Virus record (IMG/VR): IMGVR_UViG_3300032321_001739
Strand: one strand, 5' to 3'
DNA: 64,000 nt
From: an uncultured virus (IMG/VR IMGVR_UViG_3300032321_001739)
Taxonomy: Duplodnaviria > Heunggongvirae > Uroviricota > Caudoviricetes
Under the pieces are notes generated by a model. The model searched no databases. It was given only the letters and a program-made list of their open reading frames with translations, and was not told the origin of the DNA. Shown here piece by piece: positions 10,239 through 63,557 of the stretch (positions are counted from its first letter, which is position 1; each line of letters opens with the position of its first letter). Both the position numbers and the translations under genes were made by a program.

Positions 10239-12434
10239 ATGAATATAAATGATTATAAATTGTTTTTGGAACTTCAGAAGGATGAACCAATTAACGAAGA
10301 AGTTGGTTTAAGAAACCTCAAAAAGATTGCTAAGAGTTTAGATACAATTGACCAAGCACTTGTTGGAACTAAAAGATTAGAGATAAATCCATCCTCAAAA
10401 GCGAGTATGATTGATATATCAAATGTTGTAAGTGGAAATAGAAAGTGTGAGATTTATTTTCATAAAGACTTAGATGGTGTTACATCGGCTTTAGCTATGA
10501 AACAAATTCTTTGGAGTCAATACCAAATCGAATGTGTTGATTGTCACACAATTCAATATGGCGGATTAGAATTCGCGGTTCAACAACCAAAACCAGGAAA
10601 TCTAGCAGTTCTTGTAGATTTTGCACACTCTAAACCAATGTTTACAATTGCAACTGACCACCATCAAGAACAAGTTGGTGCCGAAGATACATCATCAACA
10701 TATTACAAACATTCAAGATCAAATGTTGAAACAATTTCTGGTGAGATTGCAAAACAAGAAATTTTTCCACAAAGAGATATTGAGTTTATTCAAACAATAG
10801 ATTCTGCGAACTTTTTGAAATATGATGTTAAACCAGAAGACGTTCAAAACTCAATCTTTAAATTAGATAAATCAATGTCTATCGAAAAGTTAAAATTCAC
10901 TATGGGTTTTGTTACTAATAGATTATTATTAGCTTATAAAAATAAAGCAATTACTTTAAAATCTAAAGACGGTAAAAGAGACCATATTAATAGAAATATT
11001 CTAGAGTGTTTGGTGTTAGATTGTTCTCCAAATTTATATTCAATGTATAATAACTTATTACATTATATGAATAATGCAAAAACAAGTGATAGATTGGGTA
11101 GATTAGCAACACCAGAAGAAATAACAAAAAACTTAGCAGATTATATCGAAACAATGAAAACATATTCTAATAAGGAATTTGATGATGATTATAAAATTCT
11201 AAGACAATATGGTGCTGGTTCTATGGTAAAACCAGGATCTTATGATAGATATGTTGTGTTTAAAAATAACCCAGAGGCAGAGTTTAACTGTATCACTTGG
11301 CCAATGGGGTTAATTCAAGTTTCTTGTAATCCATTTAAAGAAAAAGCTCTTAAAGATATTAACTTAGGTGAAATTGCTAAAGAAGTTCTTGCAATATTTG
11401 AACCAAAGTTTAAAAAATACTTTATCTCAATTAAAGCAATTAAAGAAGTTTACGAAACATCACAAGACTGGAAAAATCAACAAAAAATAAAAGGCGAAGA
11501 TTTCTCAGGAATTGGATTTAAATTTTCTGACCTTGCTGCTTTTTATATGGATTGTATTTACCAAAATGGATCAACTGGGGTCAAAAACATTATAGATAAG
11601 GTTTTAGAAATTGATTTTAGAGCAAATTCTGAAACATACGAGGATATTGATGTTATTATCAATTTTAATGGTCAAAAATTTCAATTTAAAGTAACTGAAG
11701 ATTTATTGATTTCAGAATTTGTAAAAACAGCAGTAGCTGATAGAGATATTAGTAAGTTCTCTGTTTATTCATACAAAGAAGGAGAGCCTTTTATTAGTGA
11801 ATTGACACAAAAAAGAATAGGTGGAGCTAAAGATAATATTTCAAACCTATTAAAGAGACAAAATGCTATAGTAACAAGTAGAGATAAGATTATGGTTTTC
11901 AAACCACTTAAAGATAATGCAATAGTAGATTCAATGAATAAAAACTATTCGGATTTATCATATCAAGAATTAAAATATCTTGATGGTTTAAAAATTCCAG
12001 TATGGGAACTAATCATTAGAAACTCGGGAGGTCACCCATCAATAACAAATATATCGGGTCTAAACTTTTTAGCTTATAATAAAGCAGCTATGAAAGTTGG
12101 TTATAACACAGATAAATATACTGATATTATGGCAATGATTGTGGATAAATTTATAAACTCATTAAAAGAGAAAATCAATTTAGCTAGAGAAGGAAAATTA
12201 GTAACATATGATACAAAAGGAGTGGAACTTCTCGGACAAGATATCAATGAGAACTTTAGTTATCAATTAGTTGACAAATTTACCGGACAACCAAAGTCTG
12301 TTACAAAAGAAGAGTTTCTTAAAGCAGGTTCTGAAACAGGAATGAGAAAGTCAAAGAAAAGCTCAATTATTATTGATAACACTAATAAGAAATTGATTGC
12401 AAAGTTTGAGAATTTTAATAATTCAAAACTGTAA
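10239..12434 (+). CDS. DHH-family phosphoesterase with DHHA1-like C-terminal part
   Basis: H-x-DLDG, VDF, TDHH and a late GGHP motif. Confidence 0.75.
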   Translation: MNINDYKLFLELQKDEPINEEVGLRNLKKIAKSLDTIDQALVGTKRLEINPSSKASMIDISNVVSGNRKCEIYFHKDLDGVTSALAMKQILWSQYQIECVDCHTIQYGGLEFAVQQPKPGNLAVLVDFAHSKPMFTIATDHHQEQVGAEDTSSTYYKHSRSNVETISGEIAKQEIFPQRDIEFIQTIDSANFLKYDVKPEDVQNSIFKLDKSMSIEKLKFTMGFVTNRLLLAYKNKAITLKSKDGKRDHINRNILECLVLDCSPNLYSMYNNLLHYMNNAKTSDRLGRLATPEEITKNLADYIETMKTYSNKEFDDDYKILRQYGAGSMVKPGSYDRYVVFKNNPEAEFNCITWPMGLIQVSCNPFKEKALKDINLGEIAKEVLAIFEPKFKKYFISIKAIKEVYETSQDWKNQQKIKGEDFSGIGFKFSDLAAFYMDCIYQNGSTGVKNIIDKVLEIDFRANSETYEDIDVIINFNGQKFQFKVTEDLLISEFVKTAVADRDISKFSVYSYKEGEPFISELTQKRIGGAKDNISNLLKRQNAIVTSRDKIMVFKPLKDNAIVDSMNKNYSDLSYQELKYLDGLKIPVWELIIRNSGGHPSITNISGLNFLAYNKAAMKVGYNTDKYTDIMAMIVDKFINSLKEKINLAREGKLVTYDTKGVELLGQDINENFSYQLVDKFTGQPKSVTKEEFLKAGSETGMRKSKKSSIIIDNTNKKLIAKFENFNNSKL

Positions 12435-12807
12435 TTTCAATTTCTTCTTTTAGTTTTGAATCATTTAATATAACATCTATTTTATTATCTCTCATTATCG
12501 ATTTATCATATCTTAATGTGATTGTATCAGATGGTGAAAAAAGATCTAAATACACCTCAATTCCATTGATTGATCCCATGTGTCTTAGCAATTCTTCACT
12601 CATCAATGATTCTAAACGAGCAAATTTAAAAGAATCATTTGCTTCTAATATATTATAAATAGACATTGGAACTATCATAAAATTTTGACCTGTTTTATTT
12701 CTTTGCATAATAATTTCCTTAATCAATTTATTAGATTTTAACTTAGCCAATTCAAAACTAGTCTCTGCATAACCCAAACTTTCATCTTTATTTAAATCAA
12801 TTGTCAT
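12415..12807 (-). CDS. Major-capsid (gp23) C-terminal-like fragment with RxxK[LI]xx[LI] tag
   Basis: GQNFMIV...YNILE...GSINGIEVYLDLF..DTITLRY resembles the gp23 C-terminal segment; followed by RDNKIDVIL. Confidence 0.5.
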   Translation of the reverse strand: MTIDLNKDESLGYAETSFELAKLKSNKLIKEIIMQRNKTGQNFMIVPMSIYNILEANDSFKFARLESLMSEELLRHMGSINGIEVYLDLFSPSDTITLRYDKSIMRDNKIDVILNDSKLKEEIEITVLNY

Positions 12808-39758: not shown

Positions 39759-40334
39759 ATGAAACATTTATCAACATTTAAACTATTTGAGAGATTGGAT
39801 AACTCTACATTAGTTACTATCGAACAATTACTTGAAAGAATTGGAATTCCAAATCCAATGAGACCAACTATAGTTAGTTGGTGGAATCAAAACAGAAGTG
39901 AAATTAGAATTCATCTTTTCCCTTTTAATTCACCACAGCCAATAGCTGGTGTCTTTTTAGGAGAAAATATAATCGCTCTTAACGAAAGACTTCCAATGCC
40001 TCCACATGTTAAATTATTTTTAGCACTACACGAGTCAAGACACTGTGACCAACATAGAGAAGGTGGATTTATGGAAGGATACTATGATACAGTTGTTAAT
40101 GGAGATAGAGAATCATTTTTACAAGCTTATAGAGATTTTGAAAGAGATGCAAATGACTTTGCAATTCAATCAATGAGAGCTTGTGGATTTGAAAGAGAAA
40201 TGAATTTTGAAGAAATGAGATTGAGAGGAAATGAAAGAGCTGGTGATATGGTTTATCAAATGATGTCTAATGATATTCAGAGAGTAAATCCAGTTGATTT
40301 CTTTGACTTACTTAAAAAACAAATTGGAGTGTGA
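39759..40334 (+). CDS. HExxH metallopeptidase-like protein with N-terminal tag
   Basis: ALHESRH..Q ... FERDAN; starts MKHLSTFKLFE. Confidence 0.6.
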   Translation: MKHLSTFKLFERLDNSTLVTIEQLLERIGIPNPMRPTIVSWWNQNRSEIRIHLFPFNSPQPIAGVFLGENIIALNERLPMPPHVKLFLALHESRHCDQHREGGFMEGYYDTVVNGDRESFLQAYRDFERDANDFAIQSMRACGFEREMNFEEMRLRGNERAGDMVYQMMSNDIQRVNPVDFFDLLKKQIGV

Positions 40335-40975
40335 AACATCTAAAGACATATAAGATATTTGAGGGTTCTGATGATTTTCGTAAAGAAATGGATAATCTTC
40401 AGCAAACTAGATTAGAAATGGTTGAAAGGATAAAAAAGGATTGTGCTCCATTTTTAGAGCTATCAAAGACTTGTGAACATCCGTTGGTTTTTTTAAGAGG
40501 AACATCTTCAGATTGGTTAGATAGAAATGGTGAAAGTCTACACAGATGGGGATGCTGGAAAGTGAATCACAACTGGAATAGAAGACCGGTAGATTCTCCT
40601 AATTGGTTTCATAATGAGTTAAATAAAGAATTAGAAAGTAAATTTCATTGGCCAGTTAGAAACGGTGTATTTGCTCTTAGAAATTACTTAGTTGCTTTGA
40701 ATTACTCAAAAAGATGGAATAGAGATTCAGAAGCTTTTATTATGATTCCAATTGGTGATTTTGAGTTTTGTTACTCTGATAGATATAAAGATGTTTGGGG
40801 TGACTTGAAACAAGAAATATTAGATAATGAAGTAGATGTTAAAGAAATTGCTGATACATACACCAATGAAAACATTGAAGGAGCTGGTATTGGTAATAGA
40901 TGTCATGAAGTATCATTTAAGTGTGATTCTTATTATATGTTATCTACTACTTGGCAAAATATGATATTTGATTAA
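40331..40975 (+). CDS. N-tagged protein, possible ADP-ribosyltransferase-like fold; paralog of 41318..41947
   Basis: FLRG...RRP.DS...R.GVF...HEVSF.CD.YY. Confidence 0.5.
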   Translation: MKHLKTYKIFEGSDDFRKEMDNLQQTRLEMVERIKKDCAPFLELSKTCEHPLVFLRGTSSDWLDRNGESLHRWGCWKVNHNWNRRPVDSPNWFHNELNKELESKFHWPVRNGVFALRNYLVALNYSKRWNRDSEAFIMIPIGDFEFCYSDRYKDVWGDLKQEILDNEVDVKEIADTYTNENIEGAGIGNRCHEVSFKCDSYYMLSTTWQNMIFD

Positions 40976-40976
40976 A

Positions 40977-41321
40977 ATGAAACATCTAAAGACATACAAA
41001 GTATTTGAGAGTTTAAACTCACCAGAAGATATATTGAAAAATATATCTTTAGATTTGAGTGATGGAGGTTTGTATATTGATTTTCCAAATGATAATAAAT
41101 TTGCTGGTAAATTTTATTTATCAGTTGAAGATAAAGATAAAATTTTTTGTAAAAACTATCCAAAAGATGATATGGATTGGTTATATGGAAAACCTATTAT
41201 AAATGATTTTATTGATAAATTAAAAGATTTTGATTTAATAAGAGACGTTCACTATAAAATATATGGTGGTGGTTTAGGAGTTAATTTTGTTTTTGATGAT
41301 AAAAATGTTGTAGAATTGTGA
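40977..41321 (+). CDS. Putative internal head protein
   Basis: MKHLKTYKVFES from ATG 40977. Confidence 0.6.
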   Translation: MKHLKTYKVFESLNSPEDILKNISLDLSDGGLYIDFPNDNKFAGKFYLSVEDKDKIFCKNYPKDDMDWLYGKPIINDFIDKLKDFDLIRDVHYKIYGGGLGVNFVFDDKNVVEL

Positions 41322-41947
41322 AACACTTAAAAACATATAAGGTATTTGAGTCAATTGACACTGAAATAAATTTTGATAAAATTGTAGAAGTCCTTTCAAC
41401 CGAATGCTCAGAATTTTTAGAAATTTTAGAGACATTTAATATTGAAGGTCTTTACCGTGGTCACAAGTTGTGGGATGATGGAAATATAGTTAAAGGATTT
41501 TGGAAGATAACTCCATTTGAAAAGAGACTTCCAAGAGATACTAAATCACAAATAAGTAAATTATTAGACGAAGGTCTTCAAAAGAAATTTGGAATTCCAC
41601 TAAGAAGTAAAGGTATATTTGTAAGTAAAGATATGTCAATTGCAAAAGACTATGGTAAATTTAGAAATACCGCTTTTTTATTCTTTCCAAAAAATGGATT
41701 TAGATACTTTTGGAATCCACAAATAGATGACCTTTATACAGAACTAAGAGATAATACAAGTTGGTATAATAAGGAACCTTTTTTCTGGAACTCAAGCGAG
41801 AAGAGAGACTTTCAGGAAATAATTGATGGTTATCAAGAAGGTGAAATTGAGAAAGTTAAGTGGCAAGAATTAACTTTTATTTGTGATGAGTATTACTTAC
41901 TTGATTTAGAATATTATGACCAATTCTTAAATTATTTCATTAGATGA
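41318..41947 (+). CDS. N-tagged protein, possible ADP-ribosyltransferase-like fold; paralog of 40331..40975
   Basis: LYRG...R.PRDT...RSKGIFVS...QELTFICDEYY. Confidence 0.5.
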   Translation: MKHLKTYKVFESIDTEINFDKIVEVLSTECSEFLEILETFNIEGLYRGHKLWDDGNIVKGFWKITPFEKRLPRDTKSQISKLLDEGLQKKFGIPLRSKGIFVSKDMSIAKDYGKFRNTAFLFFPKNGFRYFWNPQIDDLYTELRDNTSWYNKEPFFWNSSEKRDFQEIIDGYQEGEIEKVKWQELTFICDEYYLLDLEYYDQFLNYFIR

Positions 41948-42631: not shown

Positions 42632-43012
42632 TCCATCTAAGTTCTTTCTTCGTCTATAAATCTTTTTTGACTTTTCTTTTTCTTCTTCAACAAATCCTTC
42701 TCGAGCATACATATAATTTCCATAGTAAAGAAGTGTAGCATCTTCTAAATTCTCTTTAATGCAATCATCACAGATAGCAATAACAAATTGATCACCGTCA
42801 TGAACTGATCCATAACCTGCATCAATGATGTGTATGATTCCATTGTCAATCATTTCATTATTGACATTGACTAAACTACCATCCGGTCTTTTGGAATCTT
42901 TCCAAAGAATATCTTCTTCTTCAACTTTTTCTTCTAGACCTCTCATACTTTCTTTAGTATAAGAGAATTTATCAGGAATTACGTTATTCTTTTTACAACA
43001 AATACAATACAT
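42623..43012 (-). CDS. C4 zinc-binding protein with C-terminal tag
   Basis: CICC...ICDDC; ends RRKNLDGLV. Confidence 0.6.
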   Translation of the reverse strand: MYCICCKKNNVIPDKFSYTKESMRGLEEKVEEEDILWKDSKRPDGSLVNVNNEMIDNGIIHIIDAGYGSVHDGDQFVIAICDDCIKENLEDATLLYYGNYMYAREGFVEEEKEKSKKIYRRRKNLDGLV

Positions 43013-43158
43013 TATTGGAATATTTTTTTAATTTTCATTTTTCTTATGATAGCTCGTAAAAAAGACTTTCTCATACTTGATCCAATATTATATGATTTTT
43101 GAGTATTTGGATATAAAGAGGCAAAGTCGATGTTTATTATGGTATTAATGTATTCCAT
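43012..43158 (-). CDS. 48-aa peptide with PolB motif-A-like DFASLYP and C-terminal tag (not in ORF track)
   Basis: MEYINTIINIDFASLYPNTQKSYNIGSSMRKSFLRAIIRKMKIKKIFQ*; TAATG-coupled to the next gene. Confidence 0.65.
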   Translation of the reverse strand: MEYINTIINIDFASLYPNTQKSYNIGSSMRKSFLRAIIRKMKIKKIFQ

Positions 43159-43821: not shown

Positions 43822-44073
43822 TTATAATAACTGACTTAATTTTAACTCTCTAATAATTGGAGTTAAAAGAAGTCTCTGATTATCTGGAAGTCCAACCAAA
43901 CAACTTTGTAGTAAAACCGTGAAGTGAGAAACTTCAACTTGGTCTTCAGATTCATATTTAGATTCCAGTTCTCTTTCAATTGTTCTAAGATTTGCTGCTA
44001 AACTATACATCTGTTTATCAATTGCGGTTTTTTTAATACTCTTAATTGTTTCTATCACTAATTTAGATTTCAT
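43822..44073 (-). CDS. UVR (UvrB/C, ClpC M-domain-like) protein with C-terminal tag
   Basis: KKTAIDKQMYSLAANLRTIEREL; ends IIRELKLSQLL. Confidence 0.6.
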   Translation of the reverse strand: MKSKLVIETIKSIKKTAIDKQMYSLAANLRTIERELESKYESEDQVEVSHFTVLLQSCLVGLPDNQRLLLTPIIRELKLSQLL

Positions 44074-45679: not shown

Positions 45680-45927
45680 ATTCCAATCTCACTTAATATC
45701 TTTTCTCTCCACACTTCTAAAGTAACAAAGTTCTTTGTTGGAAACCACTCTAATTCACCACATCCCTCTAAGTTTAGAAAGTTATTATTCCAATCGACTA
45801 TTCCATCAATGTTAAATATAAGTTCTCCTTCATAAACTTTACCATATTCTAACGGATCTTCTAATTTAAGAGTGGGAGCTCCGCCTAACTTATTTGTAAA
45901 ATTGGTATCTATACAAACTACTTTCAT
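45676..45927 (-). CDS. SH3-like small protein with C-terminal tag
   Basis: KVVCI...LEYGKVYE...WFPTKNF; ends REKILSEIGI. Confidence 0.65.
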   Translation of the reverse strand: MKVVCIDTNFTNKLGGAPTLKLEDPLEYGKVYEGELIFNIDGIVDWNNNFLNLEGCGELEWFPTKNFVTLEVWREKILSEIGI

Positions 45928-46463
45928 ATTCCTAAATCATCTAATTTACTATCTCTTAAAAACTCTTTTATAAGCAAATTCAGTTCATACTTTCCATCTA
46001 TACAATCTCTTTCTAAAATCCTAATAGGTCTTAATCTCATCGTATAAGTTTTCCTAACATTTATATTAAGATGGTTTAATTCCATAATAGGATCAGTTCC
46101 GGATGTGCGTTGAATACTTTTATCTTTTGATAAGATATGATAAGTCATTAAACGAATCGATTGCATCTTATTTGTATTAGTAACTAAATTCGACTTAAAG
46201 TAATCTACTTTATCAAAAGTAATCTCAACTAAGAAATTAAATTTATCTGTAACCTCTGATAAATTTGATGGATTAGTTTTATAAAACTGACGATCTTCAA
46301 CATGAGAATAGGAAATAACTCCATCACTTTCTGAAACTGTGATATCATCAATTGAAAAAAAATCATCAGATGTTAATTCCTCAAAATTCTTTTCATTTGG
46401 ATACCATCTTAAAAAGACCAAACTAATTTTCTGAGTATTGTTTATGTTGTAATCAATTTTCAT
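45924..46463 (-). CDS. Hypothetical protein with C-terminal tag
   Basis: Ends LRDSKLDDLGI. Confidence 0.65.
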   Translation of the reverse strand: MKIDYNINNTQKISLVFLRWYPNEKNFEELTSDDFFSIDDITVSESDGVISYSHVEDRQFYKTNPSNLSEVTDKFNFLVEITFDKVDYFKSNLVTNTNKMQSIRLMTYHILSKDKSIQRTSGTDPIMELNHLNINVRKTYTMRLRPIRILERDCIDGKYELNLLIKEFLRDSKLDDLGI

Positions 46464-46581
46464 TAAATAACTTTTTAATTTTGTTCATCCTCACATACTG
46501 TCTAATACCAAAATGGTATTTAGACACACCTGATGCCGTCAATAACTTTTCATAGAAATATTTTAATTCGTTATTTAACAT
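46453..46581 (-). CDS. 42-aa peptide resembling a portal-protein helix, with C-terminal tag (not in ORF track)
   Basis: MLNNELKYFYEKLLTASGVSKYHFGIRQYVRMNKIKKLFNEN*; fills the gap between two tagged genes and overlaps both. Confidence 0.6.
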   Translation of the reverse strand: MLNNELKYFYEKLLTASGVSKYHFGIRQYVRMNKIKKLFNEN

Positions 46582-46913
46582 ACCCAATATTGATATTCAT
46601 TTTCGTCTCTTAAGACTTCATCTATTTTTAACTCTCTCTCATAAGCAATCATCTTACCTAAAGTTTCTCTCAAGAAACTCAAAGTCTTTTTCTTTCTTAA
46701 TTCACTTCTATAATTAGTAAGTTCAAGTTCTTCAATACTCGTCTTAAACATTTCAAGATTAGCCTTCATATCTTGATAGTAGTTATTAGATTTCTGCCAA
46801 TAAATAATCTCACCATCTTTTAAGATGATATAAATATCTTTCTCTTTGAAAGGACATTGAAGTTCCTCAATGATTTGATATTGCTCGCCTCTGTTATTTA
46901 TTATAAACCTCAT
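46575..46913 (-). CDS. Hypothetical protein with near-terminal tag
   Basis: ERELKIDEVL; first gene after TATATTTGTA (46919-46928, minus). Confidence 0.6.
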   Translation of the reverse strand: MRFIINNRGEQYQIIEELQCPFKEKDIYIILKDGEIIYWQKSNNYYQDMKANLEMFKTSIEELELTNYRSELRKKKTLSFLRETLGKMIAYERELKIDEVLRDENEYQYWVC

Positions 46914-46974: not shown

Positions 46975-47511
46975 ATGAAACACCTAAAAAGATTTAATGA
47001 GAATATAACTTCTGATAATAGAGGGGAAAGATATCAGTCTATGATGGATCTTGTAAAAGCTTTTGATAAGAGTATAATTACACCACCAACTGAACAAATC
47101 CCTATAAGTCAGGTTTATAAAGGCATTATTATTAAAACGGTAAATAAAGTTGACACAACTGGCTTAGGTGGAAAAATTGGCTCCTCTAATACAGAACTTC
47201 CCGGAGTTGAGGTTCATTGTGATATTCAATCAGATTGGTTTCACAGAAAACCAGATACAGAAAATAAAAACTTCCAAACAAACTGGATTTATATAGGTCA
47301 AGTTCATCACTACTCTGTCCTTCCTGGTCACTTTAATCTTTGTTTTTATGAAAGCGAAGGTGGAGTAAAACAAAGAGTATCTGCTAATTTTAATGTTGAT
47401 TTTCATGACCACTTAATACTTAACTACAATGACGTAAATCATGCTGAATTAGAAAATCTACTTTCCGAATTTGGAATTGAAGTAGATGAAATGTGGGGAA
47501 TTCCAAGATAA
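46975..47511 (+). CDS. Putative internal head protein
   Basis: Starts MKHLKRFNE. Confidence 0.6.
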   Translation: MKHLKRFNENITSDNRGERYQSMMDLVKAFDKSIITPPTEQIPISQVYKGIIIKTVNKVDTTGLGGKIGSSNTELPGVEVHCDIQSDWFHRKPDTENKNFQTNWIYIGQVHHYSVLPGHFNLCFYESEGGVKQRVSANFNVDFHDHLILNYNDVNHAELENLLSEFGIEVDEMWGIPR

Positions 47512-47594: not shown

Positions 47595-48320
47595 ATGGAT
47601 TACGGAAAAGATTTTAAAAAGTATGCACTAAGTGAAGGTTTGACTTCAATGAACCTCAATTACTACGAACAACAAATTGAAGGGTCAATGACACCTTATA
47701 TCTTAGAAGAAAGAGAAATGCGTGTGACACAAATGGATATTTTCTCGAGATTAATGAGAGATAGAATTCTTTGGGTCGCTGGTGTGGTTAATGACCAAAT
47801 GTCAACAGTTGTTCAAGCACAACTTATGTATTTAGACTCAGTTGAAAAACGAGACATCACAATGCATATTGACTCACCAGGTGGATCAGTAAAGTCAGGT
47901 TTATCAATGATTGATGTGATGAATTATATCAACTCGGATATTCAAACAATCAATACAGGAATGGCAGCATCAATGGGGTCTGTTCTACTTTCATCAGGAA
48001 CAAAAGGAAAACGTTCTTCACTTTTTAACTCTAGAGTTATGACACACCAAGTCAGTCACGGAATGCAAGGAAACATTCAGGACACAACAATCTCACACAT
48101 CGAGGGACATAAATACAATTATATCTTATTTAATATTTTGGCACAAAATTGTGGTAAAACATTTGAAGAAATGATTGAAAGTTCTCGCAGAGATAAATGG
48201 TTCAACTCACACGAAGCGTTAGAATTTGGTCTTATAGATGAAGTTATTGGGGACCAATCAATGGATAAAATGTTAGTAGGATTTGATGATTATTATAACA
48301 GAGAAGTTCTCTCAAAATAA
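47595..48320 (+). CDS. clpP: ATP-dependent Clp protease proteolytic subunit
   Basis: MDIFSRLMRDRI, IDSPGGSV, AASMGS (Ser), MTHQ (His) and RDKWF (Asp). Confidence 0.95.
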   Translation: MDYGKDFKKYALSEGLTSMNLNYYEQQIEGSMTPYILEEREMRVTQMDIFSRLMRDRILWVAGVVNDQMSTVVQAQLMYLDSVEKRDITMHIDSPGGSVKSGLSMIDVMNYINSDIQTINTGMAASMGSVLLSSGTKGKRSSLFNSRVMTHQVSHGMQGNIQDTTISHIEGHKYNYILFNILAQNCGKTFEEMIESSRRDKWFNSHEALEFGLIDEVIGDQSMDKMLVGFDDYYNREVLSK

Positions 48321-59990: not shown

Positions 59991-60299
59991 ATGGGATCTT
60001 TAATTAATGAAAATTACAATCCTCTATTAGAAACAGTAATAGATATCTTTAAATCTAAATGTAGACCTGGATACACTCCATTATATTTACCTGGTAAAAC
60101 TTTTGTTGAACACTTTAGTTTACAAGATGGAGATATTGATCACTTCTTTAATTTAATGTGTTATGAGTTAAAAGTCCTTTCAATAAATCCAGGGTCTGAT
60201 GAAATGTCATATCACTGGGAACAAAATGACTTTGGATTGTTAGAACCCTATCTAACACAATTAAAAAGAGATAATAATCTAACCGATTTAGGAATATGA
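59991..60299 (+). CDS. Hypothetical protein with C-terminal tag
   Basis: Ends KRDNNLTDLGI. Confidence 0.65.
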   Translation: MGSLINENYNPLLETVIDIFKSKCRPGYTPLYLPGKTFVEHFSLQDGDIDHFFNLMCYELKVLSINPGSDEMSYHWEQNDFGLLEPYLTQLKRDNNLTDLGI

Positions 60300-60517
60300 A
60301 TGTAGGAGATATTGTTAGACTTAAAAGTAATCATCATCTTACTGAATTCATTAAAGGTGATTGCTTTATAACACAAGTAGTAAAGTATAATAATAAACAT
60401 AGAAAAACTCGTTATCATATTAAAAATAACGAAGATTGCATGACTTGGGTTCACTTAGAAGAATTGGATTTAGTTAGTGATTTAAGAAATCAAAGATTAG
60501 AAAAATTAGGAATATGA
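60296..60517 (+). CDS. KOW/SH3-like small protein with C-terminal tag
   Basis: MNVGDIVRLK; ends LRNQRLEKLGI. Confidence 0.65.
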   Translation: MNVGDIVRLKSNHHLTEFIKGDCFITQVVKYNNKHRKTRYHIKNNEDCMTWVHLEELDLVSDLRNQRLEKLGI

Positions 60518-60545
60518 ATGTAGAAGAATTAAAAACAGCCAGAAA

Positions 60546-60555
60546 TATATTTGTA
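60546..60555 (+). promoter_or_regulatory. Bacteroidota housekeeping-sigma -7 element TAnnTTTG (representative; about 13 copies)
   Basis: TATATTTG(T/C) at 15987(-), 18137(-), 19796(-), 25033(-), ~43807(-), 46919(-), 51452, 53322, 54849, 58622, 59481, 60546; TATCTTTG at 52165. Confidence 0.75.
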
Positions 60556-60557
60556 AT

Positions 60558-61160
60558 ATGAAAATACACAAATTAGAAGATGGTGATATCATTAAGATAT
60601 TACCAATGATTGATAAGAATAATAAGATCTCTTGGATAAAACAGTATGATTGTGTTGGTCTTAATACTAAGACATTCATCAGTGATACTAAAGGATATTT
60701 GAGAAGAATATCACTTATGCAATCCAAATCAAGTATTAACTTACCGATCACAACAAGATATGCTATGAATATTTATATTGATGGTGAGATTCGTGTTTTA
60801 AATGTTGGTAGAAAGCTATTTCAAATAATCACAGATAATCCAAAGCTATGGGATATAAAAGGTAATCATCAAATCTTTATATCTATGAAGGAAGTTAGTG
60901 CTGGTGGTGGTCAAGTTTTCCCATCATTTGATAAGTCTTATGTTTCTGAAAAAAGTTGGACACCACCAGTTAGTGATATTAATTCTGAAGTAGAGTGGTT
61001 ATCTTATATCAAATCAAATCAACCAGACTTTGATAATCATCTCGAGAAGAGTAACATATTTAATCATAAACAATTACTTATTAATCATTTAGGAAAAGAT
61101 ATGTTAGGTGAGTTGATAGCAGATGATAGACAGAAAAAATTAGAAGGATTAGGAGTATGA
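60558..61160 (+). CDS. Degenerate gp32-like ssDNA-binding fold with C-terminal tag
   Basis: IKILP, TRYAMNI, GEIRVLNVGRKLFQII and FPSFDKS parallel gp32 motifs; ends DRQKKLEGLGV. Confidence 0.55.
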   Translation: MKIHKLEDGDIIKILPMIDKNNKISWIKQYDCVGLNTKTFISDTKGYLRRISLMQSKSSINLPITTRYAMNIYIDGEIRVLNVGRKLFQIITDNPKLWDIKGNHQIFISMKEVSAGGGQVFPSFDKSYVSEKSWTPPVSDINSEVEWLSYIKSNQPDFDNHLEKSNIFNHKQLLINHLGKDMLGELIADDRQKKLEGLGV

Positions 61161-61321
61161 AAGAAGATTGGATAGAGTTATATAACGGAGACTGGATGGA
61201 ACAAATGGCTAAAAAAACTTATGATGAAGCGTGGATAGATACCTTAAAAGACTTTAGGAAGATAATAAGAAAAGATAAAATAATGACAATATATGATTTA
61301 CATTTACAAACCAAGAAGTGA
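61157..61321 (+). CDS. 54-aa peptide with near-terminal tag (not in ORF track)
   Basis: MKEDWIELYNGDWMEQMAKKTYDEAWIDTLKDFRKIIRKDKIMTIYDLHLQTKK*; ATGA-coupled. Confidence 0.55.
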   Translation: MKEDWIELYNGDWMEQMAKKTYDEAWIDTLKDFRKIIRKDKIMTIYDLHLQTKK

Positions 61322-61514
61322 TTGGCATAAAAGATCTGATTTAACTGAAGGAAAGACTTATGAGTGTGAGTGGAATGGTGAAATGGTTTATTCATCTACC
61401 GGTGTTTATTTTAGATTGATTGGTGATTTCGGACATGAAATTGAAGTGCATGAAAGTCAATTTGTTCAATTAGATAAGGTTAGACAACAAAAACTAAATG
61501 AAATAGGTATATGA
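61293..61514 (+). CDS. SH3-like small protein with C-terminal tag
   Basis: LTEGKTYE...IGDFG...SQF; ends RQQKLNEIGI. Confidence 0.65.
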   Translation: MIYIYKPRSDWHKRSDLTEGKTYECEWNGEMVYSSTGVYFRLIGDFGHEIEVHESQFVQLDKVRQQKLNEIGI

Positions 61515-61720
61515 TTGTTAAATTAAATTCAGATAACAGAATTGGTAAATTCTATGCTTTATCTTTAAATAAAGAATATGTAGCTGAAGTGATAAATAGA
61601 AAAATGGGCGATTGGTATAAAATCAAATGTGATGATGGTCATATTAGAGAGTTTTCAGAACACCACTTTATTTCAATTGAGAAAATGCGTGATAAGAAGT
61701 TAAATGAATTAGGAATATGA
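61511..61720 (+). CDS. SH3-like small protein with C-terminal tag
   Basis: LSLNKEY...YKIKCDDG...HHF; ends RDKKLNELGI. Confidence 0.65.
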   Translation: MIVKLNSDNRIGKFYALSLNKEYVAEVINRKMGDWYKIKCDDGHIREFSEHHFISIEKMRDKKLNELGI

Positions 61721-61920
61721 TAGTTAGATGTAAATTAGACAATGATTCAGTTGGTAAATTAAAAGGTTTAACAATTGATAAGTCTTATATGGTAACTGGA
61801 ATTGATAATATTGGATATAGAATTATTGACGATGTGTTGAACAACTATTGGTATACAAAAGAATTATTTTATCCAATTGAAGATGAAAGAGAAACGAAAT
61901 TAAATGAATTGGGAATATGA
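61717..61920 (+). CDS. SH3-like small protein with C-terminal tag
   Basis: LTIDKSY...YRIIDD...ELF; ends RETKLNELGI. Confidence 0.65.
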   Translation: MIVRCKLDNDSVGKLKGLTIDKSYMVTGIDNIGYRIIDDVLNNYWYTKELFYPIEDERETKLNELGI

Positions 61921-62378
61921 AAGAATTATATAAACAACTTACTGATACAATTCAGGCTCTTCCAGGTATTGAAGTTAGCGGTAGTAATTTATCAAATTCA
62001 TTTGATAAGATTAAATCTAATTGGGGTGGTCATTGTATTTTCTTTTACTCTGATGAAAAAGATGCTGAAGGACTTTTCTTTCTTACACGTTCTATAGATA
62101 CTAGGTATTGGGAGTTTGGACATTTATGGAGAATTGAAATAACTTGTGGTGACCAAATACATCCAAATGGTGACAGACCAATTACTTATAATATTTACAG
62201 ACCTTTCATTGGAGAAGAAACTGAAGAAGAAATTGATAAAGAGATAAACTTACTCATTGAAAATATGCACTATCATTTCCACCACGATAATTTTATGTCT
62301 GGCTTTAATATGGATAGAACTAAGTATGACCTGAAAGAGTGGAAAAGAGAAATGAAGTTAAATGATTTAGGGTTATGA
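61917..62378 (+). CDS. Hypothetical protein with C-terminal tag
   Basis: Ends REMKLNDLGL. Confidence 0.65.
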   Translation: MKELYKQLTDTIQALPGIEVSGSNLSNSFDKIKSNWGGHCIFFYSDEKDAEGLFFLTRSIDTRYWEFGHLWRIEITCGDQIHPNGDRPITYNIYRPFIGEETEEEIDKEINLLIENMHYHFHHDNFMSGFNMDRTKYDLKEWKREMKLNDLGL

Positions 62379-62707
62379 AAATAATTTGTGATGATACTAC
62401 CTCTAAAGAGATAGTAGATATATTCTTTCACTTTGATGAAAATAGAGAAAGGTATATCAGAATTGATTGGATTCATCTAACCAAAGGAACTTCTTCTAGA
62501 AGAGAAAAACCGGGTGATCCTCTGAAGCAAGTGATTGTTGATTGTATTCAAGTAAGAGGTAAATCACATTTAGGTTATGATGGAGACTCTACAAATGGCA
62601 CTCGTTATGTATATGAAGGTGATGCACTTTTCAAAGAGTTAAATAATTGGATGATTAATCATCAAACAATTAAAAGAGATATTAAGTTAAAAGAATTGGG
62701 ACTATGA
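62375..62707 (+). CDS. Hypothetical protein with C-terminal tag
   Basis: Ends RDIKLKELGL. Confidence 0.65.
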   Translation: MKIICDDTTSKEIVDIFFHFDENRERYIRIDWIHLTKGTSSRREKPGDPLKQVIVDCIQVRGKSHLGYDGDSTNGTRYVYEGDALFKELNNWMINHQTIKRDIKLKELGL

Positions 62708-62997
62708 AATTGAAATATAAAAGAGGAGATTCCTGTCATATAAAAAAGGCTAGTAAGTTTGTAGAAGGTTCAATAGTCAAGTTGGATATGCCATATCATG
62801 GAAGTTCATGCTATAAAGAAGGAGATATCAGATACTTTGTTACTGAAAAGAAAACTATAACAATAAGCGCAAAAGAACTCTTATTAGGTAAGTATGATAA
62901 AAATGATATAACACAAACTTATTCAGAGAGCGATCTTATATCGTGGGAAAGAGAATGGAAAATAAATCAATTATATGAGAAAGATACACTTATCTAA
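62704..62997 (+). CDS. KOW-like protein with near-terminal tag
   Basis: KYKRGD; REWKINQL. Confidence 0.6.
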   Translation: MKLKYKRGDSCHIKKASKFVEGSIVKLDMPYHGSSCYKEGDIRYFVTEKKTITISAKELLLGKYDKNDITQTYSESDLISWEREWKINQLYEKDTLI

Positions 62998-63217
62998 GTT
63001 TCCAGAAAGACCACATGTGCTTAAAGCCAGTTTAATGTTTGTTGAAGATAATAAGATATGTGATGGATGTGATGAAAGATCAAAATGTGCTTCTATACGA
63101 ACATTGGGTGATGGAGTTTCAATACTTTGTCAAGATTGCATTGAAGGTATTTTAGAGAGTTTAGATCCATCAGCAGTAAGAGATATTAAATTAAATAAAT
63201 TATTAAATGAATTATAA
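62975..63217 (+). CDS. C4 zinc-finger protein with C-terminal tag
   Basis: CDGC...LCQDC; ends VRDIKLNKLLNEL. Confidence 0.65.
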   Translation: MRKIHLSKFPERPHVLKASLMFVEDNKICDGCDERSKCASIRTLGDGVSILCQDCIEGILESLDPSAVRDIKLNKLLNEL

Positions 63218-63557
63218 AGAAATTGTTAGTAAGACAAAAGACAAATTTCAATCAATGTCTTTTATACCCGGAGATACGTTCTCTGAAATGTTATCTTTTT
63301 GGATTGTTGTTATTTCTAATCAGAATGGAATGATTAAAACACTAGAAGGAAATTCCGGTGGGCTAAAATTGGTTACTTACCAATCACCAGAAGAATTTAA
63401 ATCTAAGTGTCAATATAAACACAGTGATGGGTATTGGATTGAATTTATGTCAAACAACACACAAAAGAAATCCGACTTTATTGAATACTATTTTGAACAA
63501 GAGAAAATGAAAGTTGATGAAATTAGAGATTTTAAGTTAAATGACTTAGGAATATAA
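63207..63557 (+). CDS. Hypothetical protein with C-terminal tag
   Basis: Ends IRDFKLNDLGI. Confidence 0.65.
   Translation: MNYKEIVSKTKDKFQSMSFIPGDTFSEMLSFWIVVISNQNGMIKTLEGNSGGLKLVTYQSPEEFKSKCQYKHSDGYWIEFMSNNTQKKSDFIEYYFEQEKMKVDEIRDFKLNDLGI

Follow-up and report, generated by a model that had tools for sequence, protein, structure and literature searches.

A conserved 42-residue gene of an uncultured huge phage that probably joins a portal helix fragment to a shared C-terminal tag

The mini-gene, its neighbours and its conservation

The window analysed here is the whole 64,000-nucleotide stretch of an uncultured virus (IMG/VR record IMGVR_UViG_3300032321_001739). A 702-residue protein encoded in the window has its best matches in uncultured phages of 634–735 kb (LR745206, 49%), assigning the window to a huge phage, and we take the host of this phage group to belong to the Bacteroidota. 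A closely syntenic IMG/VR record of 436 kb (G001) was used as a stand-in genome. The window has no portal gene of its own, and the portal tests were made with the portal of G001, a close relative, together with 80 portals of the clade. The locus comprises a mini-gene and two tagged neighbours:

45924..46463, minus strand: downstream tagged ORF of 179 residues, overlapping the mini-gene by 11 nt and anchoring the cassette slot
46453..46581, minus strand: mini-gene with the putative portal helix, 42 residues, an open frame by translation, conserved
46465..46491, minus strand: residues 31–39 of the mini-gene, the shared tag helix R-x-x-K-[IL]-x-x-[IL]-[FY], basic subtype
46507..46572, minus strand: residues 4–25 of the mini-gene, putative copy of stem helix alpha7 of a gp20-type portal with the beginning of its tunnel loop
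46575..46913, minus strand: upstream tagged ORF of 112 residues, overlapping the mini-gene by 7 nt; other genes occupy this place in relatives

The preliminary description had proposed a 42-residue ORF that overlaps both neighbours in a tagged operon and ends in a shared C-terminal tag. Both overlaps are present, and the tag lies on the mini-gene product and on each of its neighbours. The residues quoted in that description form the N-terminus of the ORF, the frame closes three residues past the quoted stretch, and an in-frame TTG at 46587 offers an alternative start that would add two residues.

Five close relatives share 67–93% identity with the ORF (six of six candidates, including itself). 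A profile search returned 16 proteins, of which 13 are further small relatives of 37–52 residues; long repeat proteins among the matches (P0015, P0020 and P0022) were removed as spurious. The G001 orthologue occupies the same position before the same 179-residue gene, and syntenic copies were found in three (L094, L096 and L097) of six metagenome loci examined; a seventh locus that was found starts within the downstream gene. Between the window and its closest copy, L094, the 34 codons outside both overlaps contain five synonymous and no non-synonymous differences (binomial P ~4e-4), and dN/dS was 0.15–0.37 in four other pairs (codons outside the overlaps; one pair saturated). The ORF is thus under purifying selection, and the search for homologues that the preliminary description had called for bears out a real conserved gene. 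Scans of viral contigs for the mini-gene itself gave no confirmed locus, a PDB sequence search gave one match that was judged to be chance, and an ESM Atlas search gave no usable match.

The mini-gene moves as an exchangeable cassette. It stands alone in its slot in the window, L094 and G001, is accompanied by a second, 50-residue tagged mini-gene in L096 and L097, and is absent from L095, which has the second mini-gene alone, and from L098 and L100, which have neither. At the level of the portal piece it is also absent from W01, W02 and W04, three of the related genomes compared below. In the comparison of the window with L094, the N-terminal part has five silent differences, hardly any change is seen in the tag and the downstream gene (3/540) and the upstream gene differs, a pattern that we read as a crossover within the mini-gene itself. 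The second mini-gene (L096:2859-3011, L095:335-487), which shares the slot with the first or replaces it, encodes a motif that looks like a prohead-protease piece; in the comparisons with the protease it ranks only 7th of 339 and 5th of 480.

Relation of residues 4–25 to the T4-type portal

The 42-residue sequence alone matched neither Pfam nor PHROG. In local alignment with 339 proteins, this single sequence ranked the portal of G001 fifth, and by gapless score fourth among 183,975 windows. At the level of the family, Portal_T4 (PF07230) was matched by 6 of 20 members, all at one place (~283–310; E 0.003–0.047, best 0.0029) and all six under the curated 22.9-bit cut-off, and phrog_213 by 5 of 20. 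When 183,975 windows were scored with a gapless family profile of residues 4–25, only the orthologue came ahead of the G001 portal (score 27.7, next 20.4; background mean −20.7, s.d. 8.1), and the portal held this place when the profile was built from the six closest members alone and when five of the most portal-like ones were taken out. In the reverse test, a portal-only profile put the mini-gene ORF first of the 24,898 windows in the window, at a score reached by none of 100,000 shuffles; its 18 portal segments had been located using the mini-gene profile, a mild circularity. Three results count against the relation. The hhalign probability was 15.8% (E 0.0016), the G001 portal was not among the best 25 matches of a local HMM of the N-terminal part, and a search of longer proteins scored nothing.

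Residues 4–25 map to residues ~360–381 of T4 gp20, in which the accessible text of the structural report places the stem part of helix alpha7 at 359–377 and the tunnel loop at 374–398 (PMC4493910). The profile evidence supports derivation of this segment from the stem helix alpha7 and the tunnel-loop start of a T4-gp20-type portal. A homologous portal fragment is likely, yet it falls outside PF07230 membership by the cut-off. With 42 residues, covering alpha7 and the tunnel-loop start only, the product does not make up the full wing–stem–clip–crown chain able to form a dodecamer. The resemblance to the portal stem helix that had been proposed in the preliminary description therefore stands for the family, through PF07230, phrog_213 and the profiles, and is not significant for the single sequence; alignment to gp20 profiles and to the portals of G001 and the clade gave similarity beyond chance at the family level. 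The same description had cautioned that a match this short could be fortuitous. The mini-gene is indeed short and AT-rich, and its single sequence does not reach significance, but the Portal_T4 matches of the family, the profile ranks, the shuffles and the purifying selection largely refute that caveat and leave chance resemblance or non-coding debris very improbable. That the ORF is both a real gene and of portal origin is, on the evidence of these comparisons, highly probable.

The portal copy appears to be old and reworked. All 18 diverse portals compared, and all 80 clade portals, carry an arginine (R379 in T4) after the proline of the alpha7/tunnel-loop junction. None of the 20 members of the mini-gene family has kept it, and most have Y or H at that position. 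The 80 clade portals and five kin portals all read W-F and end P-x-x-R-F; the W-F has become Y-F in most mini-gene members, and the proline is kept by 17 of 20 and missing from this ORF. Profile scores were alike for own-clade portals (19–30) and for the foreign portals of S-RIM14 (30.0) and Lak (26.4), although 16 of 20 members scored higher against own-clade than against foreign portals. Across relatives the portal-like positions of the N-terminal part are kept at 33–50% identity, and the constraint on this part (dN 0.16–0.28) is no weaker than that on the tag (dN 0.24–0.49), in which R31 and I35 are the only positions invariant within the family. An AlphaFold model of the product (pLDDT 84) predicts helices at residues 3–17, 21–24 and 27–38, a helix–turn–short helix–helix arrangement, and a fold search with this model returned generic helical matches (best Z 5.2), no portal among them. 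Untagged ORFs made of portal pieces, namely of clip and crown, are also found in W02 and W03 (L198, L199, L200, L201 and L203); the set includes a 342-residue condensed portal paralogue and one ORF with permuted pieces, suggesting that bait and tag are separable.

The shared tag, its other carriers and the Clp set

The tag helix is carried by 44–145 ORFs per tag-rich related genome (G001 44, W01 145, W02 127, W04 63) and by four in W03. The pattern R-x-x-K-[IL]-x-x-[IL] occurs at the C-terminus of 15 of 474 G001 ORFs of at least 100 residues, compared with 9 of 7,714 internal 16-mers. The basic subtype, ending [IL]-[FY], is found on mini-genes of ~50 residues and generally on shorter ORFs (median 53 versus 83.5 residues) of higher net charge (+3.1 versus +1.3 for the others). 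Among the seven tag-profile matches in proteins of at least 200 residues, the G001 family B polymerase piece, which bears on the idea of the tag as a sliding-clamp tail, was not present. In tag-rich phages the tag is also inserted within helicases of the UvsW and DinG-like kinds (G001 L028:7514-9202 and L021:17838-19508), which fits a localisation or docking handle too and does not require degradation. Separately, about ten consecutive ORFs at 60296-63557 (plus strand) of the window end with a K-L-x-x-L-G-I tag subtype, and many window ORFs (for example, 39759-41947 and 46975-47511), like 3–70 per related genome, begin with an M-K-H-L-K...F-E motif that resembles the T4 capsid-targeting sequence.

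Several other tagged ORFs carry pieces that resemble core phage proteins. Three of these lie in the window:

12415..12807, minus strand: sister gene of 130 residues, putative major capsid protein piece and tag (PF07068, E 0.01; weak)
43012..43158, minus strand: sister mini-gene of 48 residues, putative family B DNA polymerase motif A piece and the same tag subtype
43822..44073, minus strand: sister mini-gene of 83 residues, UVR-like motif and tag (PF02151, E 0.07)

The polymerase mini-gene matches phrog_262 (E 8.8e-4) and PF00136 (E 0.007) and ranks first of 339 against the G001 polymerase. The capsid-piece gene is conserved in G001, W01 and W02, but when compared with the capsid protein of G001 it reaches only rank 64 of 339. 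For the UVR-like mini-gene, the G001 orthologue and look-alikes in W01 and W02 match the UVR segment of the phage ClpC, in its middle domain. Elsewhere, tagged ORFs of W01 carry a capsid C-terminal piece (PF07068, E 2e-4) and a scaffold repeat (E 6e-15), tagged capsid pieces are seen in W02 and W04, and a 42-residue tagged mini-gene of G001 (L023:2496-2624) copies the N-terminus of the tail sheath (rank 1 of 480). The mini-gene under study combines the features of this class, being a short ORF with a piece of a core protein, a C-terminal tag helix and conservation at the protein level. Core-protein copies are nevertheless a minority of tagged ORFs, most of which carry unrelated heads; among the 133 short tagged ORFs scanned, one had a core-protein PHROG match at E ≤ 0.02. 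We note that a similar 79-residue polymerase motif A mini-gene occurs in W01 (83154-83393), and that a 250-residue G001 protein (L033:5055-5807), conserved in W01 and W02, contains a tag-like helix as well as a C-terminal half that can be aligned to the P-domain region of the capsid. Another mini-gene, considered as a polymerase motif B piece, had no cognate match and was set aside.

Genes of the Clp system co-occur with the tag. The principal features are as follows:

47595..48320, plus strand: phage ClpP, 1 kb from the mini-gene (PF00574, E 1.7e-53)
G001 L013:12044-14176, W01 423224-425329, W02 440544-442667 and W04 534497-536443: head-less phage ClpC
G001 L016:13717-14106: conserved viral UVR protein of 129 residues, with a helical N-terminal part and a UVR motif; candidate linker to the head-less ClpC

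Twenty-two G001 genes are common to W01, W02 and W04 and missing from W03, and five of these are Clp-related (three ClpP, ClpS and the 129-residue UVR protein; absence from W03 confirmed). The N-domain of the Clp ATPase, ClpC, is missing from all four tag-rich genomes and present in W03; the W04 ClpC gave no match to the UVR pattern. Head-less ClpC, ClpP, ClpS and the UVR protein thus accompany the tag in four of four tag-rich genomes, with one in-group contrast. The UVR protein has 279 relatives and is viral in the Atlas; the suggestion that its N-terminal part is a detached Clp N-domain found no support and no fold match. ClpP alone was rejected as the partner of the tag, since LR756500 and Lak-A1 encode ClpP yet are near tag-free in the parts sampled (one tag over 240 kb of the 462-kb LR756500, two over 160 kb of the 542-kb Lak-A1); neither gave a ClpC or UVR-protein match, in searches run without a positive control. 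This co-occurrence, from one in-group contrast plus outgroups, is a weak lead to a link between tag and Clp.

Possible roles and comparison with known systems

Our preferred reading, held tentatively, is that the mini-gene encodes a selected two-module adaptor composed of a portal bait and a docking handle. The portal piece may, with the same reserve, serve as bait and capture a host protein able to recognise portal that is not yet assembled, most likely an anti-phage sensor or a quality-control factor, and the tag would be the handle by which the captured protein is held at a single hub of phage origin. The strongest candidate for this hub would be the phage head-less ClpC–ClpP protease, perhaps reached via the conserved 129-residue UVR protein, which would make the product a bait-and-degrade adaptor and not a passive decoy; that phage Clp is the hub reading the tag is itself doubtful. 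A still broader scheme of programmable targeted degradation, in which head-less ClpC–ClpP with a UVR linker would read the tag on more than 100 exchangeable small proteins and destroy the host receptors caught by portal, capsid, scaffold, sheath and polymerase baits, seems improbable as a whole. Near-equal closeness to own-clade and foreign gp20 portals is as expected for the bait of a broad sensor. The accessible text of a recent study names portal and capsid among the kinds of protein that trigger bacterial sensors, and gives the polymerase sensor as one for family A (10.64898/2026.01.04.697583); the sister mini-gene here is of family B. Since the sister mini-genes copy core proteins, most of them of kinds known as sensor triggers, we count them for the bait reading. 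Purifying selection and the exchange of cassettes in one slot count the same way. On the other side stand the scarcity of core-protein likeness among tagged ORFs, the untagged portal pieces of W02 and W03, and sensors that read whole folds or ring geometry.

In a rival reading, the helix might act in the manner of a microProtein, taking the place of alpha7 and the tunnel loop of a subunit and thereby stalling or timing ring formation of the phage's own portal or that of a co-infecting T4-like phage, with the tag localising or clearing the complex. According to the accessible text of PMC4493910, tunnel loops make contact with adjacent subunits, and rings change in stoichiometry when the loops are deleted; the preference of most members for own-clade portals points the same way, as do sister mini-genes with parts of capsid, scaffold and sheath, each of them an interface in assembly. 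Such interference is nonetheless unlikely, because loss of the portal arginine from every member and the frequent change of W-F to Y-F make the fit to a ring look eroded, polymerase and UVR pieces are unsuited to an assembly role, and the gene swaps freely and is missing, at the level of the portal piece, from three tag-rich genomes. About as unlikely is a reading in which the tag is the working part and the portal DNA was raw material captured by recombination, serving now as a spacer, a small fold or a binder of an unrelated partner. The two invariant tag positions, the unrelated heads of most tagged ORFs and the crossover inside the mini-gene in the L094 comparison would suit it; constraint on the N-terminal part at least equal to that on the tag, retention of the portal-like positions among divergent relatives and the repeated copying of hallmark motifs of core proteins speak against it.

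The preliminary description had favoured a decoy of Avs4-type sensors. A passive decoy of a portal-sensing STAND receptor (Avs4 or Avs11), with no degradation step, would draw on the portal being a proven trigger of both and on sensors that appear to target monomers, according to the accessible text of 10.64898/2026.01.04.697583, and alpha7 would be exposed in portal monomers. In the same text, Avs sensors are described as closing around entire core folds through extended, fold-wide interfaces, of which a 22-residue piece offers only a part, and this counts against an Avs4 decoy. So does the loss from the copy of the arginine common to all portals compared. Both the passive decoy and Avs4 specifically as the target are accordingly quite improbable. 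RAZR, another sensor, responds to ring geometry or size (PMC13017515, accessible text).

The phage parts that bacterial receptors sense are conserved and hard for phages to change. If the two-module reading is true, small copies of sensed parts, all joined to the same handle, would amount to a counter-strategy, or to a means of policing assembly, that has not been described. Every fragment would then point to an epitope under pressure, here the portal stem helix alpha7, and serve as direct bait for unknown sensors. A handle that feeds the phage Clp protease would be a natural bacterial degrader tag. Literature on portal decoys, tagged mimics in huge phages, fragment decoys, truncated portal paralogues, dominant-negative portal peptides and phage Clp adaptors, in which subscription papers and supplementary gene lists were poorly covered, did not reveal this design, so that a portal fragment plus a shared tag is a gene design for which we found no description in print. 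The accessible part of a jumbo-phage survey mentions phage ClpP, ClpS and ClpA/X and no decoys (PMC7824862).

Compared with the T4-type portal gp20 (PF07230, PHROG 213, PDB 3JA7/6UZC), the likeness is between residues 4–25 of the mini-gene and ~360–381 of gp20. The portal has more than 500 residues; the mini-gene retains 22 of them, without wing, clip, crown or alpha5, with the arginine lost and a tag fused, and a full portal gene is present elsewhere in relatives, apart from the mini-gene. Like the mini-gene, microProteins and small interfering peptides are single-interface pieces of a larger homologue kept under selection; the known examples regulate processes in eukaryotes and do not share a docking tag. 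In T4, internal-protein cassettes place exchangeable heads on one short, conserved N-terminal capsid-targeting signal, whereas the mini-gene has no such N-terminal motif and its own tag is C-terminal and different. Trigger-competing inhibition is known from DSAD1, which acts on DSR2. Anti-Avs and other small anti-defence phage proteins of EVADES blunt sensors of virion proteins, and none, as described in the accessible text, combines a homologous trigger fragment with a shared tag (10.1101/2025.06.06.658234). The nearest adaptor precedent for the handle is SPO1 Gp53, a small phage adaptor-like protein of the B. subtilis ClpCP that has been proposed to redirect the protease and whose main binding site on host ClpC is the N-domain (PMC6873191, accessible text). 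The analogy would lie in the handle: here the ClpC is phage-encoded and without its N-domain, and a library of heads stands on one tag.
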